Assembly (NCBI GenBank): GCA_010093815.1
Contig: ML996577.1
DNA length: 64,000 nucleotides
Source: Pseudovirgaria hyperparasitica
Lineage: Eukaryota
Strand: one strand, 5' to 3'
The notes below the pieces were generated by a model, which searched no databases, was not told the DNA's origin, and was given only the letters and a program-made list of their open reading frames with translations. The translations under genes were made by a program, and so were the position numbers. Shown here one piece after another: positions 28,682 through 42,323 of this stretch (positions are counted from its first letter, which is position 1; the number at the start of each line of letters is the position of its first letter).

Positions 28682-31600
28682 CTAGTCCGCATCCGGCGTG
28701 GCTATGCCCGTCATATTCTCGCCTGTAGGGCTAGGCGGGCTAACGATTGTTGTCGGCGTATTTAACTTTCCTTCTTCTTCATCATCATCATGAGCACCGT
28801 CACCAGTAGTCTCAATATTAATCTCGCTCTCGCCTTCTTCAGGAATCGACGGGCTCAGCGGGTTTCTAGGTTCGCCACCACTTGGATTCTGCGCAGCCCT
28901 CCTTCTTGCTCTTCGTCTTGACCTTTCATCATCTGCGCTTTCTCGTCTCCGCCGCACGCGAATTGAGTCATCTCCACCAGGCGTATCATCTCCGCGCAGA
29001 CCTTGTAAGAGACTTGCGGCACGGTCCGCAACGTCTTCTTCCTTGACCTCTGGGTCCGGGCTTGTTGTGCCATTATTCTCATCACCTTCACTTCGGGGGC
29101 TGACCATGCCATTCTCTTTCTCGTATGTAGTAGGCAGTTCAGGCATCTTCTGTCCACTTGCAACACGAACTTCGTGGCGATCCTTGAGTCTTGCTCGGCG
29201 GCGACGATCGCGCTGGTCGCGCACCTGGGGTGCTGCAGCACGAAGCTTCTCAAGAAGGCTGTCCATCGCACCAGTGGATGCAGGCGATACCGGGCCATCA
29301 GGGCCGATGTCGCCGGCCGTACCCACTGCGAGCTGATTCTTACGGCGCATCGAGGCTTCATTGCGACGTTTGAGGTCTTCAATTGCCATGTTCTTTTCTT
29401 TGGATTTCTTCCATTCACTGACGAAGATAGCAAGCTTCGAGAAAAAGTCTCTACGAGCGTTTTCGTCGAGTGGGTCTTCACCGTAGAAAGCCATAATACT
29501 CTCGTATTCGCGGCTCATCTCTTCGAGGTGGACTTGCATCTGCTCAGCTTTGCGCCTGGCATCCTTCATAGACCGCTGGCATACGATATTGACACGATCT
29601 TCAGGATGAAACTTCTTGGGATCGCTCAGGTTACCAGAGTCCAAGGAACCCTGGACGTTCTTGATGTTTTCAATGTATCTCTTTGCATCGAGTTGGAGCT
29701 GATCAACATTGATTTTCTTTGCGGCAACAACGCCGGCAATCTCCTCCGTAAAGTCTTCCCATCCAGGATACTGCGTCCGCACGACTTGCTCCACTACATC
29801 TGCAAACGTTCGTTCGTTGTTATGGTCTTTGACCATACCAAGCCGTGACAATGAGCTCAATTTGAAACCAGACGCTTGTTTGTTTGCGTCGTTCATGAAA
29901 TTACCGATATCGAGGATGAGTCCAAATACGCTAAGAAGCGAACTGGAGTCTCGAAGAGACGCTGAAACTTTTGATACTTCGTCTAGCTTTTTGTATATCT
30001 CATCATATTCAGGCTCAAAGCTCCTGGTCAATGCAAGAGCTCGTATACGGGATTTCCAGTAGTGGTGAAGTTCGAATGAAGTGAAGAGGTATATTTGATC
30101 TTCGCGTGTCAGCTCCTGAGGATCCTGTTCAGGGGGTGTATTGGCGGCATTCGGTCCCGTCCAATCGCGGCTGTAAGGAGCAAGAAGTTTTACTGTGTTC
30201 TCCGGGATGTTGCAAAGATCCGGCTTGCCAAGGAATTCCATGACAACGTCGTTGTCCAGCACTTCGCGATCACAATGGATGATCATACGTACAATCTCGT
30301 CGACAGATTTGCCCGATAGCTTTGCTAGAGCAACATCTACAAACAGACAGACATGTCAGCAAAGACGTGATGAGGAATATATAGGTAAGAACTTACGATA
30401 TGCTTTGCGAAGGTCGGCCGAGATGAGCGATTTTTTGTCGTCCTTTTTACCTGATGCCTTTCCAATCGCCTTGATCTCCTTGGCTAAAAACAGCTTCTCG
30501 ACCTCGTCCAAAACACCCTTACGAGACAGTTCGATGTATCTCTCTTCTTTGGCTTCATGCGTGGGAGCATGATTTGTCCAGAGTGTGTCCTGAACAGTGT
30601 CGACCTTCTCCCAGTGTAGCGCCTTGAGTTTCTTCTTCGGCCTGGCAACTCCATGACCGACTGTTGGAGATAGAATCGCGTTATGCTTGGGTAAAAAGCC
30701 ACCTATACGCATGCCTGGTAGGGGAGGGGCACCAGGAGTTGGAGGAGGTAAAGGAGGTGGAGGAGGTCCCATTCCCATTCCCATACCCGGCATCGGAGGT
30801 GGTGGAGGGGGTGGAGGACCAGCACCATCGTGGAATCCTGGCATAGGAGGCGGAGGGGGCGGCGGAGGTCCACTTCCAAACCCAGGCATCGGAGGAGGGG
30901 GCGGTGGAGGAGCCCCGTTTGTGAAACCAGGCATAGGAGGCGGGGGCGGAGGAGGTGGGCCAGTCTCAAAGCCTGGTATCATGCCAGGCATTGGGGGAGG
31001 AGGTGGTGCTGGTGGTCCGTCGAATTCGTTCGAGCCATCCGCTGGAGTCTTGAGAGGTTCAGAGTCAATGCTGGGTTGCGAAGGACCAGTTGTGATACCT
31101 TCGTCCTCAGCTTCGTCGTCACTAGCTTCGTAGCGCTTGACTTTCGATGCAATCTCGCCCAGAAGTCCGGTGGCTTGCTGAGCGTTCATCTTCGGACGCT
31201 TCATTTCGACTATTCTGGGCTTTTCGTACACCACGTCGTCTTCATCTTCCTCAGTGACAGGCATTTCGGTCAGTGTTTCAGCACTGCTTGGAACAGGTTT
31301 CCTATGGGGTCTTCCAGCACTGCTCTGTCCTCTATTGACCTTACCCAGGTAGCCAGCATCCATATGCCCACTAAGATCTGGTTGGCCGCCCATTTCACCC
31401 TCCATCTGTTCGCGTAGTTCCCGGAGCTTGTCTGATGGGCTGAAATTTTGCAAGATACGACCACCTTCAAGTGTAGCTTGCGTTTTAGCCCGCTGCAGCT
31501 GGATCTCGAGTCGCTCCATAAGCCTTTCCCGGTCAAGGATACCACGCATCTGGGCTGGATCTGTAGATATAGTTTCTTTGCCGCCCTTCTGAGCAGCTGA

Positions 31601-34087
31601 TGCTGCAACATCTTGAGCATCGCGAAGCATGAGATAAAGTTCTCGGGTTTCTAGCTCGTTTCGCTGGAGGTCTTGAGCACGGAGTCTTCGCACGTCAGCG
31701 AGCTCAGCTTTCATCGCTTCTGCTTGGCGACCTCGGAGCTCTATGATGGCAGCCTGTTCGTCAATTTGCTTCTGCAGTTTCGCAACAACACCATCTGCAC
31801 CTAGCTCCAGTTGTGCTTTGTATTCATCACGCTCCGCAATCGCGGCGTCTGCTATTTGTCGTGCCTCTAGGGCTTCGTCCCGGACTTGTCGTGCCTCTGA
31901 GTCGGTGTAGAGTTTATCAAGAAGATTTTGCACAGTGAAATTGAGACTTTGCTTCAGGTCCATGTCCGGGAGCCTCCTGTCCATAGCGACATAGCTGAGC
32001 ATTGAGTCTACGAGCTGGAACATCCTTAGTCGATCCTCACCCTCGTTGTCCCGGATAAGTAGAAGATGCTGCATGGCTGAGACAAAGTAGTCTTGTGCTC
32101 TACTGTTCTGTATCTTGCTCATGATGGCATCTGTGATCTGCATGGGGTCATTCAAGTCCTTGACTGCTCCCTCGATGCTGTCGACCATGCTGCTGTTCTC
32201 TTTCTCAAGTACATCTTCATAGTCAACACCTTCGTTGTCGTAGTAGCGTGCGATTTGCTTGTCGATTACATCGTACTGGAAATCGGCCATCTTCTGGAAT
32301 ATACGCTTTATGCCACATGCCGTAAATTGAGCGCGAATATGCATTCGCAGCTGCACATCTGCCGGCGCATCGACCAACATATTAATGAGCATCAGAGATG
32401 CTACGGCATATTCCATAAGAAGATTCTCCATGCCAATGCCCCCACTACGAACCTCATCGCTCGCACCTACAAGGCTACCCATCTTTCCCCTGCCATCTAC
32501 TGTGACTTCGACGATGCGCATCCAGGAGTCGAATCTGCCATTTTCGTTTTGTTGCGATTTCAGGAAGTCCAATGCTTGCAACACCTTTTCATGCCCATCT
32601 CCTTCGCCCCAATGGCACAGAAATGTTACGACCTCGCTGACAAGTTTGCGAGTATTTAGACGGGGAGATGTAAGAGATCCTGCAAGAGCCATCACAATGC
32701 CGACATGGGCCAGGGCGTTATCAGCACCATACTTGTTGTTCATGAGCGCCTTCAGACACTTCACGATATCATATTCTCGGTCCAAGTCCTTTTCGGTAGA
32801 ATTTCCAGATGGAGGCGCGGGCCCCGTTGCTTGTTTGCGATTAATTTTTCCCAGTACATTGGTCAGAGCGACTTGACCTTGTGCTTCTACAAATGATTTG
32901 ACCCAGGCAATTGGTTGTGTGCGCAGGCTGACACTTAGACTTTGAAGCTGCTTCGCAGTGATTGAATTGTCCATGAGCTTCCGCACATACCATTCTGGAC
33001 TACCCTCCTCGTCAGCTCTGCCGAGGATTCCGAGCGACTCTTGACCGCCGATAGTGAGTCGTGCATGTTGCTTTTTCTTTTGGTCGGTTTGGTATTCAGA
33101 AAGCTTGTCCTGATATACAAGTGTCCATTTCTTTGAGACAGGATATGCCTCCATTTGCCTTTTTGCTGCGTCAGGTAACATCTTCCAACCGCGTTTGACC
33201 ATAAGTGCCATGAACTCTTGTTCTATTATACGTGCGTCGCTAGGTTTATCGAGATTGAAGCCCTCGGGAGAGATTGGTTGGGTGGAGGAATTACTTGAAT
33301 GGTGTCCGAAACCATGCCGATGATGCGAGTCGCGATTCGAGCCGATCGTAGGTAGAAGGGTGGACTGATCAACACCAAGTGAGGAATAAGTTGAATGTGA
33401 AGGGGTGAGCAAAGAAGTCATGCTTGATCCTCTGTACGCTGAGCTATTCGAATATATGCTTGCTTGGTCGGATGCTGCTCGTGTATTGTTAGAGGAGTCT
33501 GAACCAGCATATGAAGGGTTATACGAGCCCGTTGCTGTGCTCGCCCTGGCATTACCGCCCCATTGCTGCACTGAGACCCCCCGATCACCAGGTTGACTTG
33601 ATGCCATCGATGTACCTGTGGTATGGGGTGGCGGTCGTGGACCAGGTACGCTGGTATATCCGTTGGATTGTGGTACGGGAGTGAATGCTGGGTACTGATG
33701 AAAGTCGCCGCCAGCTTTGGCCAAATGATGCGGTTGCGGTTCGCGGGAGCGGACAGTCCGTGGGTCATTGCTCTCCTGAGGAAGGTATTCCACGGGTATT
33801 GGCGAACGCGCATCAGCTGTCCTGTCGTATGGAATTGCAGTTATTACACCAGCTTGCATGTTGATGCCCTGACTATCGTGACCACTTGAAGACGGACGAT
33901 CTATTGAGGCCACAGATGTCCTATGTGAGTGGCGAGAGGATTGTGAATTTGTTATGCTTGGCGCTATACTCGAGGTCTCGGCGCGGCTATCGTGAGATCG
34001 ATCCTTGTGAAGTCTTTTCCCGAAAAACGATCTACCGCCGGAAGACTGCCGCGACTTTTCATCTTGTGGAGTTGAAGACGGCATCAT
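28682..34087 (-). CDS. sepA: Diaphanous-related formin (SepA/Bni1 type), 2 exons: 34087-30397, 30336-28682
   Basis: GBD/FH3 region (SVSLRTQPIAWV, KCLKALMNNKYG), poly-Pro FH1 repeats at about 30700-31020, FH2 (KLKALHWEKV, GNFMN), DAD-like MDSLLEKL; intron 30337-30396; start could be 34087 or 34084. Confidence 0.95.
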
Positions 34088-35583: not shown

Positions 35584-37051
35584 CTACTTTCTCTGTCCAT
35601 ATGCCTTCGTAGCATAGTCACCAGCGTGTACAATCAGATCCTCAGGCCTGTAATCGAGACGGCCCGAGAAATAAGAATCGAGGATAGCTTTGGTGCCGGC
35701 AGCGTAACGCTAAGAAAAAGGTTAGCCCGTTCTTCGATATTTCAGAATGACAATCACGCGAGCACTTACCTTCTGAGCGTCAATGGAAGTACCAGACATG
35801 TGGGGAACCATGGCGTTACCGCCACCCCATGCATTCTGTGCGTATCGAAGAGGGTGGTCCTTGGGTGCCGGTTGCGGGAACCAAACATCACCTCCGTAGC
35901 CACGAAGTTGACCATTCTTGAGAGCCTCGGCAACATCCTCCTTGACAACGATGGCACCACGAGCAGTGTTCACCAGCCATGAGCCTAGCAGGATTAGTAA
36001 CCTGGTGTCTGCGATTATGACATGTTTACGTACCCTTCTTCATCTTGGAAAGAAGTTCCTTGTTAAAGAGACCACGAGTCTTCTCGTGGAGGGGACAGTT
36101 GATGGTAACTACATCACACTGACCCAGCATCTCCTCGAGAGTCTCGACACGCCTGCAGCCAATTTCCTTCTCCTTCTCAGGAGATAGGGCCTGGTAGTCG
36201 AAGTATAAGAGCTCCTTACAGTCGAAGGGCTTCAATCTGCGCAGGACACGCTCACCGATACGGCCTACAGCCACGGTACCAACGACCTTACCCTCGAGAT
36301 CATACTCGTTCTTTGCAACTTCGGCGACGTTCCAGTCACCACGGGCGACCTGTTCGTGAGCGGGAACGAAATTGCGGACGAGGGTCAGAATGGTCATGAC
36401 GACATGTTCAGCGACTGAGACGACGTTGGAGCCAGTCACCTCAGCGACAGTGATGTTGTGTTTGTTGGCTGCGTTGAGATCGACGTGATCAGATCCAATA
36501 CCGGCAGTGACAGCGAGCTTGAGTTTCTTTGCCTTGGCAAGACGTTCCTCGGTCAGATAGCCAGGGTGGAAGCTACAGGAAGAATACAATCAGTATGGCG
36601 CCAAAGGTCAAGGCGGACGTGCTTGAAAGTTGGACACTCACGGAGTCGTGATGATGACCTCTGCATCAACCAATTCTTTGTCGAATGTGGAGTTCTCGCC
36701 CTCCTTGTCGGACGTAGTCACGAGAGTGTGACCTTGCTCTTCAATCCACTTTCGAATGCCGAGCTCGTTCTCTGTGGTTCCGAGCAATTGAGGCTCCTGT
36801 TCGGCATGGACACCGCCCTGGGAAAACGTCAATTAGGGACAGTTCGAGGTTGTCACGCAGGGTTCACTCACGTCATAGAGAACCAACAAAACTTTACCCT
36901 GCATTTGCGAGGTAGCTGTTAGCGTTCTGATACCAGTACAGTTGGGATGTGCCCGGAAGGTAGGGGTAGCATTGTATCGTGAGACAACCCGGACGAAGCT
37001 GGGCACGGAGGTTGGGCGTGCGAGGCGGGACAAGGACTGAGCAAATACCAT
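35584..37051 (-). CDS. FDH1: NAD-dependent formate dehydrogenase; exons 37051-36872 (contains optional intron 36899-37048), 36817-36642, 36572-36034, 35984-35770, 35709-35584
   Basis: [70 protein letters not shown], ends [10 protein letters not shown]; all introns GT-AG and in frame. Confidence 0.97.
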
Positions 37052-39066
37052 TGTGTATGAAGAAGTGAGAGTGTAACGGAGACGTGATCAGGAGGCGGAA
37101 GGTAGCTGGTTATAAAAGGTCAGCTATGCCAGAGCTCCAGGGTAGCCAGCTAGACGAATTGATGGTGAGAGGGGGAAGAGGCGGCAAGGACAAGGGCAAG
37201 TGCTGATTAGCTGTGATGACGTTGCAGCACGCTGAGAGCGAACCTGTTGACTTACGGAACAGAGTGAAATTGAGTGGACTGAGCGTGTTTTGGCGTTGGT
37301 GGTGATGGTGTGCAGTGAAGAAAGGTCTAGTGTGCAGATCGGTCGACAGTGTTTATTGCAGGTCCCGTTGATGCGGAGAGGGGCAGCAGTTTGAAATATA
37401 TGTGCGTCCAGGTCCGTCAGTACTAATAGAAGTAGTGCTCGTGCTCGGTATGGACAATGAATTTGCTCCAATCTTTTTTGTCGCCGAATGCGCAGGCTAA
37501 TAGGTGATGCCCCATTTCTCCACACCTAGGCAGATTTCTTCTCGTCATGTTCCATCGATGAATGATGGGCGAGACCGCACCGCCGCCATTACCATCCATC
37601 CAGTGTATTGGACTGGCCTGGAGAGAGAGCTAGACGTCAGACCTCCCCCTCCCCCACTTTCGTGTAGTGAAGCGTGAGGTCTGCGCTGCGTATTACACCG
37701 TCTGCTGGCCATAGCTCCATCTCCCACCTGCACATCATTCTGCTGTGGTGGTTGGCGCATTATCGGCAAATGCGGGGTCGTGTCCAATCGCGAGTAAGTC
37801 CATGGTGAAGACTGCTCCTCTTCGGCCCAGTGGGAGCATTCATTCAAGCATGTATTGATTCTTGAGCCACAGGTACACTAACCGGCTATTGTTGATGTTG
37901 TTTCCCTCCTAGGATTTCTGTGGGATCATTGCTATTGTCTTTCCGCGTGGGTCTGCTTCTAGCTGCAGATGTTGACTCTTCGGACTTCTCTCGTTCTTTC
38001 TAACCAACTCAGATCAGACTACCAGCAACATCCCTGGTACTGTAGAGCGCCAATTGCCTCGACTTGGAACTTCGGCATTGGTCTGTCCAGGGACCAACGG
38101 CTAACACGGAACGCTGTCGTTGTAATGTTTGGCACCGCAATTCTGCCTGTTGCCGCCGAGGATGTCCACTGAAAGCATCCCAAGAGAACACACTCGTGCA
38201 GCCAGCTAATTAAATCAGAAGCAGCTTTTGGCGTGTTGGGTTCTCGAGTTGGATATTGATAGATCATATGACCTCGTTCCTGCGACCAGGTCCAGCTTAC
38301 ACTTGTATCCCACTGTACATGCTGATTAGACCGCATCAAACCGGACTCCACCACAGAGTCTTCCAGAAAAGCTTGCTCGTGCGCCAGTCCATGTCCGGGA
38401 CTCAGATATGATACCTATTAGATGTCACGAATCCATTTCCAGCTCAAGCCTTCCGTTTGTCCTGCCCGGTTAGAGTTGCTTTGCTGTTCTGTATACCCAT
38501 CTATACAGCCCACCTCACTCAGCAATGTATCCCAGCGAGCGCGCATTATTGTGACATCACATGATATCCCTCCAACAGCCCTGTCGCATGCTTGTATACT
38601 GCGAACCTGCCCTGTACTATCGTGTATCTTTCTACCAATGGTAGAAGTGAAAACGTGTTCGGATCGATTGGAAAAGTTGGTCACGCGAGACTTGAGGGAT
38701 ATTATTAGCAATTCTGCAACTGTTCACAGTAGTCTGGCAGGGCCGCACTTTCGACTTACTCCCATATCGTGTTTGCACGGCTCGAAAATGCCGGAGCTGG
38801 CTGCCTTGCAGATGAAATCGCCGCGATAGCCGGACTGCTGTAATGTACGGCAGTCTCCATTTGAAGCTTTAGATTGTCTGCGCTTACGAATCGCATGCAA
38901 TTCTGTTTAGGATAAGTGAGCTAGGACATGTACACAACATCAGGTAGAGCTGAGCGCGCGAGCGTGTGTGTGTGCCAAGGTCGACGCGCATGGACCCGCG
39001 CAAACGGGGAAGGTCGAGCGAGTTGAATGATGAATGCACATCTTCTCAGCAATCCCTTAGCGACGT

Positions 39067-40445
39067 ATGCCTCGTTTACTCCCGCGATCAATTCTGCATG
39101 CTCAGTCTGAGAATCCTCTCCTCGCGAAACTACTCCCTACATGCAGAAGTCTCGCGTCTGCGCGTAATGAATTGCGATGGCTCCGTGAGCACGCTATCGA
39201 CCACCATGCCACTGAGCGTAGCCCGGCTTCCAAGGGTGACAATAACAATTGGAGAGCGAGATTGAAAGAGCTAGTCGCACGACGAGCGAGAGGTGAACCT
39301 CTGCAATATGTTCTGGGAACTGAATGGTTCGGAGACCTTGAGCTCGTGTGCCGCCCGGGTGTACTCATACCGCGGTGAGTTCAGTCGACACCATCAGCTC
39401 ATGTAACGTATATGAGAGAAAGAGATGCTGGGTCTACGGAGTTGTGCTCTTGCAATAATATCTCGAGACATACGTCAAGTGAAATGCGCCCAGCATGCGA
39501 ATCAACGAGCGTGCCAAAGCCAGCTTGTGTTCATGCAAGACAACTGCCGTCTGCCGAGCGACCTGTGTGTACCACAGCATTTTGCGACTTGCTGCTAACC
39601 CAACGATCAGGCCGGACACCGCGACCGCTATAGGCTACCTCGTACAGCGGATGCTCGAGCGTGACCCTCACAAGTGGAGAAAGACACTTCGAGTGCTTGA
39701 CCTTTGCACAGGCTCTGGCTGCGTATCTTTGTTTTTCCAGCACGAATGGATCAGGTTCATGCCCGTAATCCCTGAAATCCGCACTATAGGTGTGGATCTG
39801 TCTCCGAAAGCTATATCACTTGCACAGCTGAACCGAGACCGCCTGCTGAGAACTAAGCATGAAGACGTTGAACGGCACAAAGCATCACAGGCCTCTCACT
39901 TCTACGATACTGCATTCATTGAAAGTCTGAGCAACACCAGCTTCCTGCACGCTGATGTTCTCGAGGAATCACAGCTATGGCAAAAGCTAGAGGCTGAGCA
40001 TAGCCTGGCAGCGGACATACTGCTGGCCAACCCACCATATATATCAAGATGGGGCTTCCAGCATTCGACAGAACGGTCAGTGCGTAGACATGAGCCTAAG
40101 ATGGCTCTTGTGCCTCCCTTGCCATTCTCAATCCCAGGCAAGGACTGCCCTAAACGAGCAGACAGTGACGACCTGGGTGACTTATTCTATGAACCATTAG
40201 TCAAGACCGCATTAAAATCCGATGCAAAGATAGTTTGGTTCGAAGTTGCAGATATTGAACAAGCCGCACGAGTGGCACATCTGATCACCTCGATGGCTTC
40301 CGCGCGCCCAGAACAGCTGGAACTGTGGAGAGAAGAACCGATGCCTGGTATAGAAGGCCTGGAAGGAAAAGACGAGATATATCAGGGTTTTATTGTCAAG
40401 GGCAGAGGAAATGGCAGATCTGTAGTCTGGTGGCGAGATGGATAG
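39067..40445 (+). CDS. MTQ1: HemK/PrmC-family N5-glutamine methyltransferase (mitochondrial release factor, Mtq1-like), 2 exons: 39067-39374, 39611-40445
   Basis: RRARGEPLQYVLG, VLIPR|PDT, SAM motif LDLCTGSG, NPPY, HEPKMAL; intron 39375-39610 (GTGAGT..GCTAAC..CAG). Confidence 0.88.
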
Positions 40446-40974: not shown

Positions 40975-42323
40975 ATGCCAGAACGGTCAGACGTACATTA
41001 CTTCGGCGCTGGCCCGGCACCACTTCCATCTGCAGTGCTCGAACGTGCTTCTCAAGCCTTGCTCAACTACAAAGGTCAAGGCGTTGGCATATGCGAGATC
41101 TCGCATCGATCGGCGGACGCAAATGAGATACTTGCCGACGCAAAAGCAGCCCTCACGAGCTTGCTTGACATACCTGAAGATTACGAGATCTTGTTTCTTC
41201 AAGGCGGAGGTAGCGGAGAGTTCAGTGCGGTCGTCTATAACCTAGTCGGCGTCTGGGTTGAGAAGAGGCGTGCACAAGCCGAGAAGGACCTCAGCGCCTC
41301 TACCGATGCCAAGGGTGAAGCACTTGAGCAGAAGATATTTGAGCGGGTTCAACGAGAAGTCAAAGAAGAACTTAGACTCGATTACTTGGTCACAGGATCT
41401 TGGTCACTCAAAGCTTCCCAAGAAGCATCTCGACTCATAGGTGCAGAGTATGTGAATGTTGCAGTCGACTCTCGCAAAGCCAATAACGGCAAATTCGGTG
41501 TGATTCCGTCAGAGTCAGACTGGAAGCCTACACCAGGGAACAAGGCTGCGTTCACATACTTCTGTGACAATGAAACCGTTGACGGTGTAGAGTTTCCCCA
41601 ATTCCCAAAGAGCTTGGAAGGAGCAGATGCCCCCTGGGTCGTTGCAGATATGTCATCCAACTTCATCAGCCGCAAGGTGGATGTCAGCAAGTATTCGGTC
41701 ATTTTCGGTGGTGCACAGAAGAATGTCGGTAATGCCGGGATTACAATAGTGATTGTGAAAAAGTCGTTACTTCCACCGGCATCACCTCAGGCCGCACCAG
41801 AATTACTACGGAGGCTCAATCTCCCCATTGGTCCAATTGTTTTCGACTGGCCGACTATTGCCAAAAATAATTCGCTCTACAACACCTTGCCCATATTCGA
41901 CGTCTGGATTGCGGGCCAAGTCATGTCTGACCTTGTATCCACCTATGGGGCAAAGAAGATAGCGGGCCAAGGGGAAATATCTGCTGAGAAGGCAAACATC
42001 ATATATGGCACGCTAGAACAGTACCCAAATGTGTACAAGGTCGTTCCCGACAAAACAGTCCGTAGCAGGATGAATATCTGCTTTCGAGTAAACGGGGGCG
42101 ACGAAGAGAAAGAGAAGACTTTTCTTGCGGGTGCTCAGAAAATCGGCCTGCTGGGCTTGAAGGGTCACCGAAGTGTTGGTGGCATACGCGCAAGTAATTG
42201 TAAGTGCGAGGAAAAGCTTTGGCTCAGCCAGATTGCTGATTGATCATCACAGACAATGCCGTGTCACTGGACGGCGCTAAGAAGCTCGTTACCTACCTCG
42301 AGACGTACGCTACCGGTGCATAA
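40975..42323 (+). CDS. SER1: Phosphoserine aminotransferase, 2 exons: 40975-42199, 42253-42323
   Basis: FGAGPAPLP, EISHRS, QGGGSG, TGSWS, NETVDGVEF, ADMSS, PLP lysine in GAQKN, SLYNT, KGHRSVGGIRASN|YNA; intron 42200-42252. Confidence 0.97.

Follow-up and report, generated by a model that had tools for sequence, protein, structure and literature searches.

A single-copy gene for NAD-dependent formate dehydrogenase (FDH) very probably supplies both cytosolic and mitochondrial enzyme, because an intron with a weak donor, placed directly behind its start codon, is spliced out of only part of its transcripts. The gene lies on the minus strand of the 64,000-nucleotide stretch of DNA analyzed here (the window), and coordinates below refer to that strand unless marked otherwise. 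The coding intron (intron 1; 36899..37048) is 150 nt long, a multiple of three, and free of stops in frame with the ATG at 37051-37049. The sequence coordinates bear out the arrangement described in the original prediction, ATG|GTATTT...GCTAAC...CAG|GGT AAA GTT, with GGT AAA GTT following the CAG that ends at 36899. When exons are joined by coordinates, removal of the intron gives a short FDH of 361 amino acids and its retention adds 50 residues to give 411, also as proposed.

Judged by its sequence matches, the gene product is an NAD-dependent FDH of the D-2-hydroxyacid dehydrogenase superfamily. Exon 4 matched the FDH equivalog profile NF005750 with E 1e-74 (next family, 2.5e-39), and the same profile was the best match of exon 3 (E 1e-13); PF02826/PF00389 were matched as well. 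Single exons score under the NF005750 whole-protein cut-off of 329 bits, and P0011 and P0039, homologues with 91-92% identity across exon 4, clear it with 451 and 455 bits. All 29 PDB sequences found at E <= 1e-50 are named FDH, with matches down to E 1e-100, and the closest named fungal homologues (Corynespora, Fulvia, Hortaea, Zymoseptoria) are 92-93% identical over exon 4, which places the host among the filamentous ascomycetes. The spliced protein contains AVGRIG (170), YFDY (192), NTARG (254), PQP (285) and PHMSG (309), which, with the Asp of YFDY, we take to be nucleotide-binding and active-site motifs of FDH. No second FDH gene was found among the seven matches listed for this genome (G000), the six others being 27-36% identical and the next best 35-36%. 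In the region 36465-36455 of exon 4, where many homologues read AANKTNGGITVAEV, a surface loop is shortened by a deletion of two residues.

The exon structure was established with contigs of three public sequencing runs (X1, X2 and X3) from two studies, X2 and X3 representing one sample. The runs are not recorded as RNA; their contigs join across GT-AG introns, and we therefore infer that they are RNA-derived. Contigs were aligned to the locus at 80% likeness, and the depth of each is one figure per contig rather than a read count. All three runs contain a non-coding upstream exon without ATG (37256..37397); 37397 marks the start of the X1 contig rather than a mapped 5' end, and the X2 and X3 contigs extend past 37500. 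It is followed by a 5' UTR intron (37106..37255; GTAAGT...GCTGAC...CAG) with a strong donor, the second intron of exactly 150 nt in this gene, which is joined out in 3/3 runs (joint 37105/37256) and was overlooked in the earlier reading. In other loci, a branch-plus-acceptor pattern lies no more than 90 nt from the ATG in 9/49 cases with 400 nt of flank, a count made without a control. A TATA-like TTTTATAA occurs at about 37117-37110, inside the pyrimidine tract of this intron. It resembles a TATA box and might serve a nearer transcription start; the contigs do not discriminate a proximal promoter.

The next exon (37049..37105) carries the start codon at its very end, with A at -3 and G at +4. 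An in-frame stop precedes this ATG and the upstream exon has no ATG of its own, which rules out a protein extended farther toward the N terminus. The signals of the coding intron comprise a weak GTATTT donor without G at +5 (37043..37048), which doubles as codons Val2-Phe3, the branch site GCTAAC (36918..36923), 25 nt from the intron end, and the CAG acceptor, so that a GT donor, a CTRAC branch and a YAG end are all present. Beyond it lie coding exon 2 (36872..36898; 27 nt, GKVLLVLYD), intron 2 (36818..36871; 54 nt, GTGAGT donor, in-frame stop), used here as an internal control for ordinary splicing, and the remaining FDH coding sequence (35584..36817), which is interrupted by introns at 36641-36573, 36033-35985 and 35769-35710, all with joints in run contigs, and ends with TAG at 35586-35584. 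By eye, neighboring ORFs of the window resemble a large formin-like gene in two ORFs (28682-34087, minus strand; a poly-proline stretch, then a long conserved-looking domain), a HemK/PrmC-type methyltransferase (39067-40445, plus strand) and a phosphoserine aminotransferase (40975-42243, plus strand).

Contigs of both predicted RNA forms were found. The joint 36897/37048 (skip of 150, CT..AC), from which the coding intron has been removed, is present in 3/3 runs, at depths of 4.1 (X1), 3385.2 (X2) and 14211.5 (X3). On one side of this joint the match spans 27 letters, the whole of exon 2. X1 contains a 284-nt contig, free of mismatches, in which upstream exon, ATG exon and exon 3 are connected, 27 intervening letters fitting exon 2. 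Unbroken contigs that run from exon 1 through the retained intron were obtained from X2 (36871-37077, depth 3793.8) and X3 (36871-37076, depth 9145.5), that is, from one sample; among the contig pieces listed, X1 has the spliced form alone, at its depth of 4.1. Spliced and retained depths sum to 7179 (X2) and 23357 (X3), near the depth of the exon 2-exon 3 joint (7000 and 21589), and the retained share is therefore roughly 0.5 and 0.4 (0.53 in X2 and 0.39 in X3, rough figures for one sample whose conditions are not on record). Contigs that retain intron 2 reached depths of 48.2 (X2) and 124.8 (X3), or 0.7% and 0.6%. Hence both RNA forms exist, and the retained form stands well above background retention. 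The joint is neither never spliced nor always spliced, as the original prediction required. Contigs of this kind do not prove that the retained RNA is processed to completion, exported or translated.

The simplest cause of partial splicing is the weak donor, with T at +5; the same T is the middle base of a hydrophobic codon, and the two constraints are inseparable here. RNA structure gave no explanation of retention, exon 1 plus the intron folding no better than shuffles (z 0.34; 128/200 as good).

To trace the arrangement in other fungi, metagenomes were scanned with an exon-3 pattern that is blind to the intron, which returned at least 116 loci. Left out were 19 duplicates, 8 loci whose searched 450 nt did not contain the exon-2 motif, 7 that start ATG-G/V-K-V, and 10 without ATG-GT in range, nine of which have less than 190 nt of flank, the tenth (L086) being a true exception. 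The 72 loci kept formed 54 clusters at 90% identity, with the window excluded. Among the matches listed, the first-intron segment is a multiple of three in 49/54 and both a multiple of three and stop-free in 48/54; it ends in AG in 52, contains CTRAC in 47 and has all features in 41. In 47 loci the open segment is between 114 and 243 nt long, always a multiple of three, and one more measures 69 nt. For intron 2 in the same loci, leaving out the 17 that have none at that position, the corresponding figures are 13/37 (multiple of three) and 0/37 (open). The difference in open frames, 48/54 versus 0/37, gives a Fisher p of 1e-19, uncorrected for relatedness; with clustering at 80%, 38/44 first introns are open versus 0/30 second introns. 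These counts show, at the level of genomic sequence, that the segment is kept as open frame and as intron at once across filamentous ascomycetes, and so bear out the suggestion that it might be conserved in other fungi.

Of the six loci scored as non-open, four (L006, L012, L019, L044) keep an open leader of 129 nt with branch and inner CAG, and carry a second intron of 54-59 nt directly after the leader CAG, a layout also seen in L078 and L111. Since their 129-nt presequence is intact, these four were not counted as losses. Genuine losses were found in L016, which has a frameshift and a stop, in L112, in L074, where CAG has become TAG and which fell into the cluster of L035, and in the short, degenerate L067; L086 and L059 are without the arrangement, L059 having no intron. 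Two of the eight loci dropped for want of an exon-2 motif, L011 and L057, have open introns (270 and 285 nt), and five have too little flank. In the six loci with adjacent introns, the GTT donor of the 54-59-nt intron follows the CAG so closely that the exon between has zero length, the upstream branch and CAG being kept; these are candidates for recursive splicing or alternative donors. Judged by eye, P0045, P0054 and P0116 (Xylographa, Lambiella, Bachmanniomyces) have annotated N-termini that resemble mis-calls of this layout. L074 has TAG in place of the CAG acceptor of near-identical L035, L084 and L094, so that it could still be spliced and its long form ends in a stop; it is a candidate natural variant or an assembly error.

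These data bear on a reading in which the intron is an ordinary one that is spliced slowly, the retained RNA is unfinished pre-mRNA and the enzyme is cytosolic only. The weak donor is compatible with it, as is the inability of the run contigs to show which introns a single molecule retains; Aspergillus transcripts often keep introns, mostly without a productive outcome, and in A. nidulans retention typically introduces a stop codon (PMC4046813). Yet a slowly spliced intron accounts neither for 47 stop-free segments of 114 to 243 nt that vary by threes (plus the one of 69 nt) beside intron 2, open in none of 37, nor for the acid-free composition and fixed cleavage motif described below, and retention of intron 2 is under 1% in the same runs. 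We consider this reading quite improbable.

If the retained RNA is translated, as the preferred reading of dual supply from one gene holds, the leader should have the properties of a targeting peptide. Its 51 residues include 6 Arg, 6 Ser and 7 Thr, with no Lys and no Asp or Glu, in agreement with the original description of it as Arg/Ser/Thr-rich and acid-free. An open frame of 150 nt arises in 29% of 20,000 base shuffles and is therefore weak evidence on its own; 1.6% of shuffles are open, lack Asp/Glu and have at least six Arg/Lys. The strong evidence comes from the RNA-derived joints and from conservation, not from the open frame. Orthologous leaders are likewise without acidic residues in 38/48 cases and have a mean net charge of +7.4, and the hydrophobic moment of the first 15 residues is above the leader's own shuffle median in 51/52. 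In the window, the moment of residues 1-13 is matched by 0.45% of shuffles, the lengths of the residue spans being the analyst's choice; for residues 1-25 and for the whole leader the figures are 6% and 5.75%, not significant. There is no long hydrophobic stretch, and a Pfam search of the leader gave no match.

The leader ends in a so-called R-10 motif, R-X|(F/L/I)-X-X-(S/T/G)-X-X-X-X|, which marks successive cleavage by MPP and then MIP/Oct1 and in which Arg at -10 is described as not critical (PMC7996597). The motif (36899..36928) ends exactly at the CAG acceptor, which encodes its final Gln; the MPP cut is predicted after Thr and the Oct1/MIP cut at the exon junction. Its end coincides with the acceptor in 38/40 CAG-ended orthologues, versus 1/1479 other positions in the loci listed, and it is found in 38/42 long-form database proteins. 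The branch site lies within it, CTA AC forming the codons of Leu(-8) and Thr(-7), and the 25 nt from branch to intron end span the octapeptide L-T-A-T-S-Q-M-Q. This overlap of branch site and cleavage motif is new here. Two-step cleavage of the retained leader by MPP and Oct1/MIP is predicted to leave a G-K-V start. Removal of the start Met from the spliced form would leave G-K-V as well. Because the branch site encodes part of a motif that ends at the acceptor, both routes should give the same start. In ten loci the intron ends in AAG (...R-E-K|V-K-V) instead; these do not fit R-10, and the branch is 22 nt from the end in nine.

Composition, a possibly amphipathic N terminus and the exactly placed R-10 motif together lead us to regard the leader as a putative cleavable presequence for the mitochondrial matrix. 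It might instead be translated for another compartment, or for stability or assembly, as a retained in-frame intron of yeast PTC7 can target elsewhere (PMC3372373). Against this stand the lack of a long hydrophobic stretch, the Arg/Ser/Thr-rich composition that is acid-free in 38/48 leaders, the fixed position of a matrix-protease motif and the finding of FDH in purified fungal mitochondria, which make it highly improbable. That finding concerns NAD-FDH as a spot in Percoll-purified mitochondria of Penicillium expansum, for which three programs predicted no targeting (PMC3130790); with an enzyme this abundant, the spot may reflect contamination.

Codon choice speaks to whether the splice signals themselves are under selection. 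G at +5 of the donor occurs in 2/54 first introns (L016 and L067) versus 37/37 second introns. Val2 is written GTA in 48/52 open segments, compared with 29/932 Val codons (3%) in FDH exons and 4/61 elsewhere in leaders; the branch Leu is CTA or CTG in 49/51 (FDH exons, 235/856 or 27.5%; elsewhere in leaders, 64/269), and the final Gln is CAG in 40/40 (126/179 and 40/88, respectively). The loci are related, so that p-values for these comparisons overstate the significance. As read from these synonymous preferences, donor, branch and acceptor are maintained through codon choice. The ten AAG-ended loci (L010, L026, L029, L037, L040, L048, L052, L070, L099, L109) have the rarer Lys-encoding acceptor, and second introns use CAG or TAG only (37/37). 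AAG may be a further weak signal, possibly favoring retention.

The branch motif is absent in 7/54 loci (L005, L014, L017, L039, L056, L060, L119), in which the leader peptide is kept. All four loci that have no GTA donor, and the two that do not end in AG, are among these seven, a pattern that looks as if splicing had been lost as a unit, and they are candidate long-form-only genes or second copies. L017, on a 175-kb contig, is also without the next two introns. Among 117 fungal homologues in the database, 42 are called long (MV...Q/K), 39 short (M-x-K-V), 14 otherwise, and 22 are partial; two long/short pairs, P0089/P0207 and P0208/P0206, have identical mature sequence. Intron-free contigs of both kinds were found, five of transcript size that keep only intron 1 (L043, L069, L072, L076, L113) and seven with the spliced start ATG-G/V-K-V.

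Hence it is very improbable that the enzyme is mitochondrial only, the splice signals having arisen by accident from the peptide sequence and spliced RNA being noise. Donor, branch and acceptor do each overlap conserved residues (Val2, Leu-Thr and Gln), and the seven branch-less loci, two of them also without AG, keep the peptide. But synonymous choices favor the splice signals far over background, spliced contigs equal retained ones in depth, short M-x-K-V forms make up 39/117 homologues, seven intron-free contigs have the spliced start, and every one of the four loci that lack a GTA donor is branch-less, as expected if signals decay together once splicing is lost.

The original prediction also offered the in-frame ATG at 36904 (36902..36904; Met at -2) as a second route to a short form. 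This part did not hold up: as a conserved route it was rejected, since Met at -2 occurs in 0/52 orthologues, and with C at -3 the codon is probably incidental. The earlier reading had overlooked an out-of-frame ATG at 36972 (36919..36972; A at -3, 17 codons, its stop being the TAA within the branch site), which would catch leaky ribosomes ahead of 36904. That the short form arises mainly from 36904, by leaky scanning or an intronic start site, is thus barely credible: the codon exists, dual targeting by downstream AUGs is frequent in fungi (PMC7049704; Bol3, PMC11285713) and contig depth is compatible with transcription starts inside the intron, but orthologues have no such Met, the start context is A at -3 with G at +4 for the first ATG and C at -3 for the second, with the out-of-frame ATG between them, and the spliced junction is observed directly in contigs.

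We therefore return to incomplete splicing of a weak-donor intron after the ATG as the preferred mechanism. Spliced mRNA would yield the cytosolic 361-residue enzyme, (M)GKVL..., and retained mRNA a 411-residue precursor whose basic, acid-free and possibly amphipathic leader would direct entry into the mitochondrial matrix. There, MPP would cut after R-T and Oct1/MIP would then remove L-T-A-T-S-Q-M-Q; because this octapeptide is encoded by the branch-to-acceptor spacer, the mature matrix enzyme would start G-K-V like the Met-trimmed cytosolic form. The likely purpose would be to let a single gene provide for formate oxidation, and hence NADH, in both compartments. The retained-to-spliced ratio may be regulated or may be a fixed leak, so that the original term "switch" goes further than the contigs do. 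Tentatively, and with rather more doubt than the mechanism itself, we suggest that across filamentous ascomycetes the last 30 nt of the intron are read both by the spliceosome and by MPP plus Oct1/MIP to the same mature N-terminus, that lineages retune the balance, and that the ratio is a regulated dial. A lineage that lost branch or acceptor would make the long form alone, and one that lost the frame the short form alone; other routes could be AAG acceptors or the insertion of another intron right behind the CAG (L006, L012, L019, L044/L078, L111), and the ratio would act as a dial for where formate is oxidized.

If the mechanism is true, many filamentous ascomycetes have cytosolic and mitochondrial FDH from one gene, and the site of NADH yield from formate changes. 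Formate arises from oxalate, one-carbon or methanol metabolism. Since gene models are near-evenly split (42 long and 39 short of 117), location predictions and metabolic models built on them would be half wrong either way. Selection on one stretch of DNA both as intron and as peptide could, moreover, be tested cleanly at this locus, where single synonymous changes should lock either form.

For one orthologue, two kinds of FDH mRNA, one encoding a signal peptide and one not, are already in print, and the detail at this locus is undescribed: we found no publication on the intron anatomy, conservation or branch/R-10 overlap, in a search whose coverage of subscription journals was incomplete. A similar presequence-coding intron may occur in Aspergillus nidulans glrA; our literature search gave no support for it, and no weight is placed on it here. 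The primary report of the Histoplasma isoforms is said to be Hwang et al. 2003. According to a 2011 review, alternative splicing in Histoplasma (Ajellomyces) capsulatum (AjcFDH1/AjcFDH3) gives mRNAs for forms of the same enzyme that have or lack a signal peptide, as proposed here; the review suggests that the isoforms go to different organelles and names Aspergillus, Penicillium and Mycosphaerella as fungi whose FDHs have extended N-termini (PMC3347622). Its text on Histoplasma FDH differs from the present account in giving no intron anatomy, breadth of conservation, branch/R-10 overlap or localization experiment. The Histoplasma event is likely to be retention of this same intron. The review describes microbial FDH as cytoplasmic and plant FDH as mitochondrial; the plant enzyme, of the same family, has a cleavable N-terminal mitochondrial presequence, as proposed here, but plant presequences simply extend the N terminus in the ordinary way, and FDHs of bacteria and yeast are without one (PMC3347622). 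Formate is not mentioned in the main text of a survey of Cryptococcus and Neurospora (PMC7049704), nor formate or aciA in the main text of the A. nidulans study of intron retention (PMC4046813).

Among other genes with comparable isoform pairs, the spliced form of PTC7 is reportedly the mitochondrial one, the intron adding a membrane segment. Retention in Saccharomyces cerevisiae PTC7 produces two isoforms, one at the nuclear envelope and one in mitochondria (Juneau 2009; PMC3372373); FDH differs in that the retained intron itself would be the presequence and lies directly after the ATG. Yarrowia lipolytica MDH2 likewise serves two compartments from one metabolic gene via splicing, but through alternative 3' splice sites that alter the C terminus, between cytosol and peroxisome (PMC3372373). 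Long mitochondrial and short cytosolic forms are described for A. fumigatus Bol3 (PMC11285713) and in the Cryptococcus and Neurospora survey (PMC7049704), and in mouse Prx V, which has an R-10 motif, two-step cleavage gives a mature protein that does not differ from the short form (PMC7996597). All of these use two start codons, whereas FDH here would use one ATG and let splicing decide.
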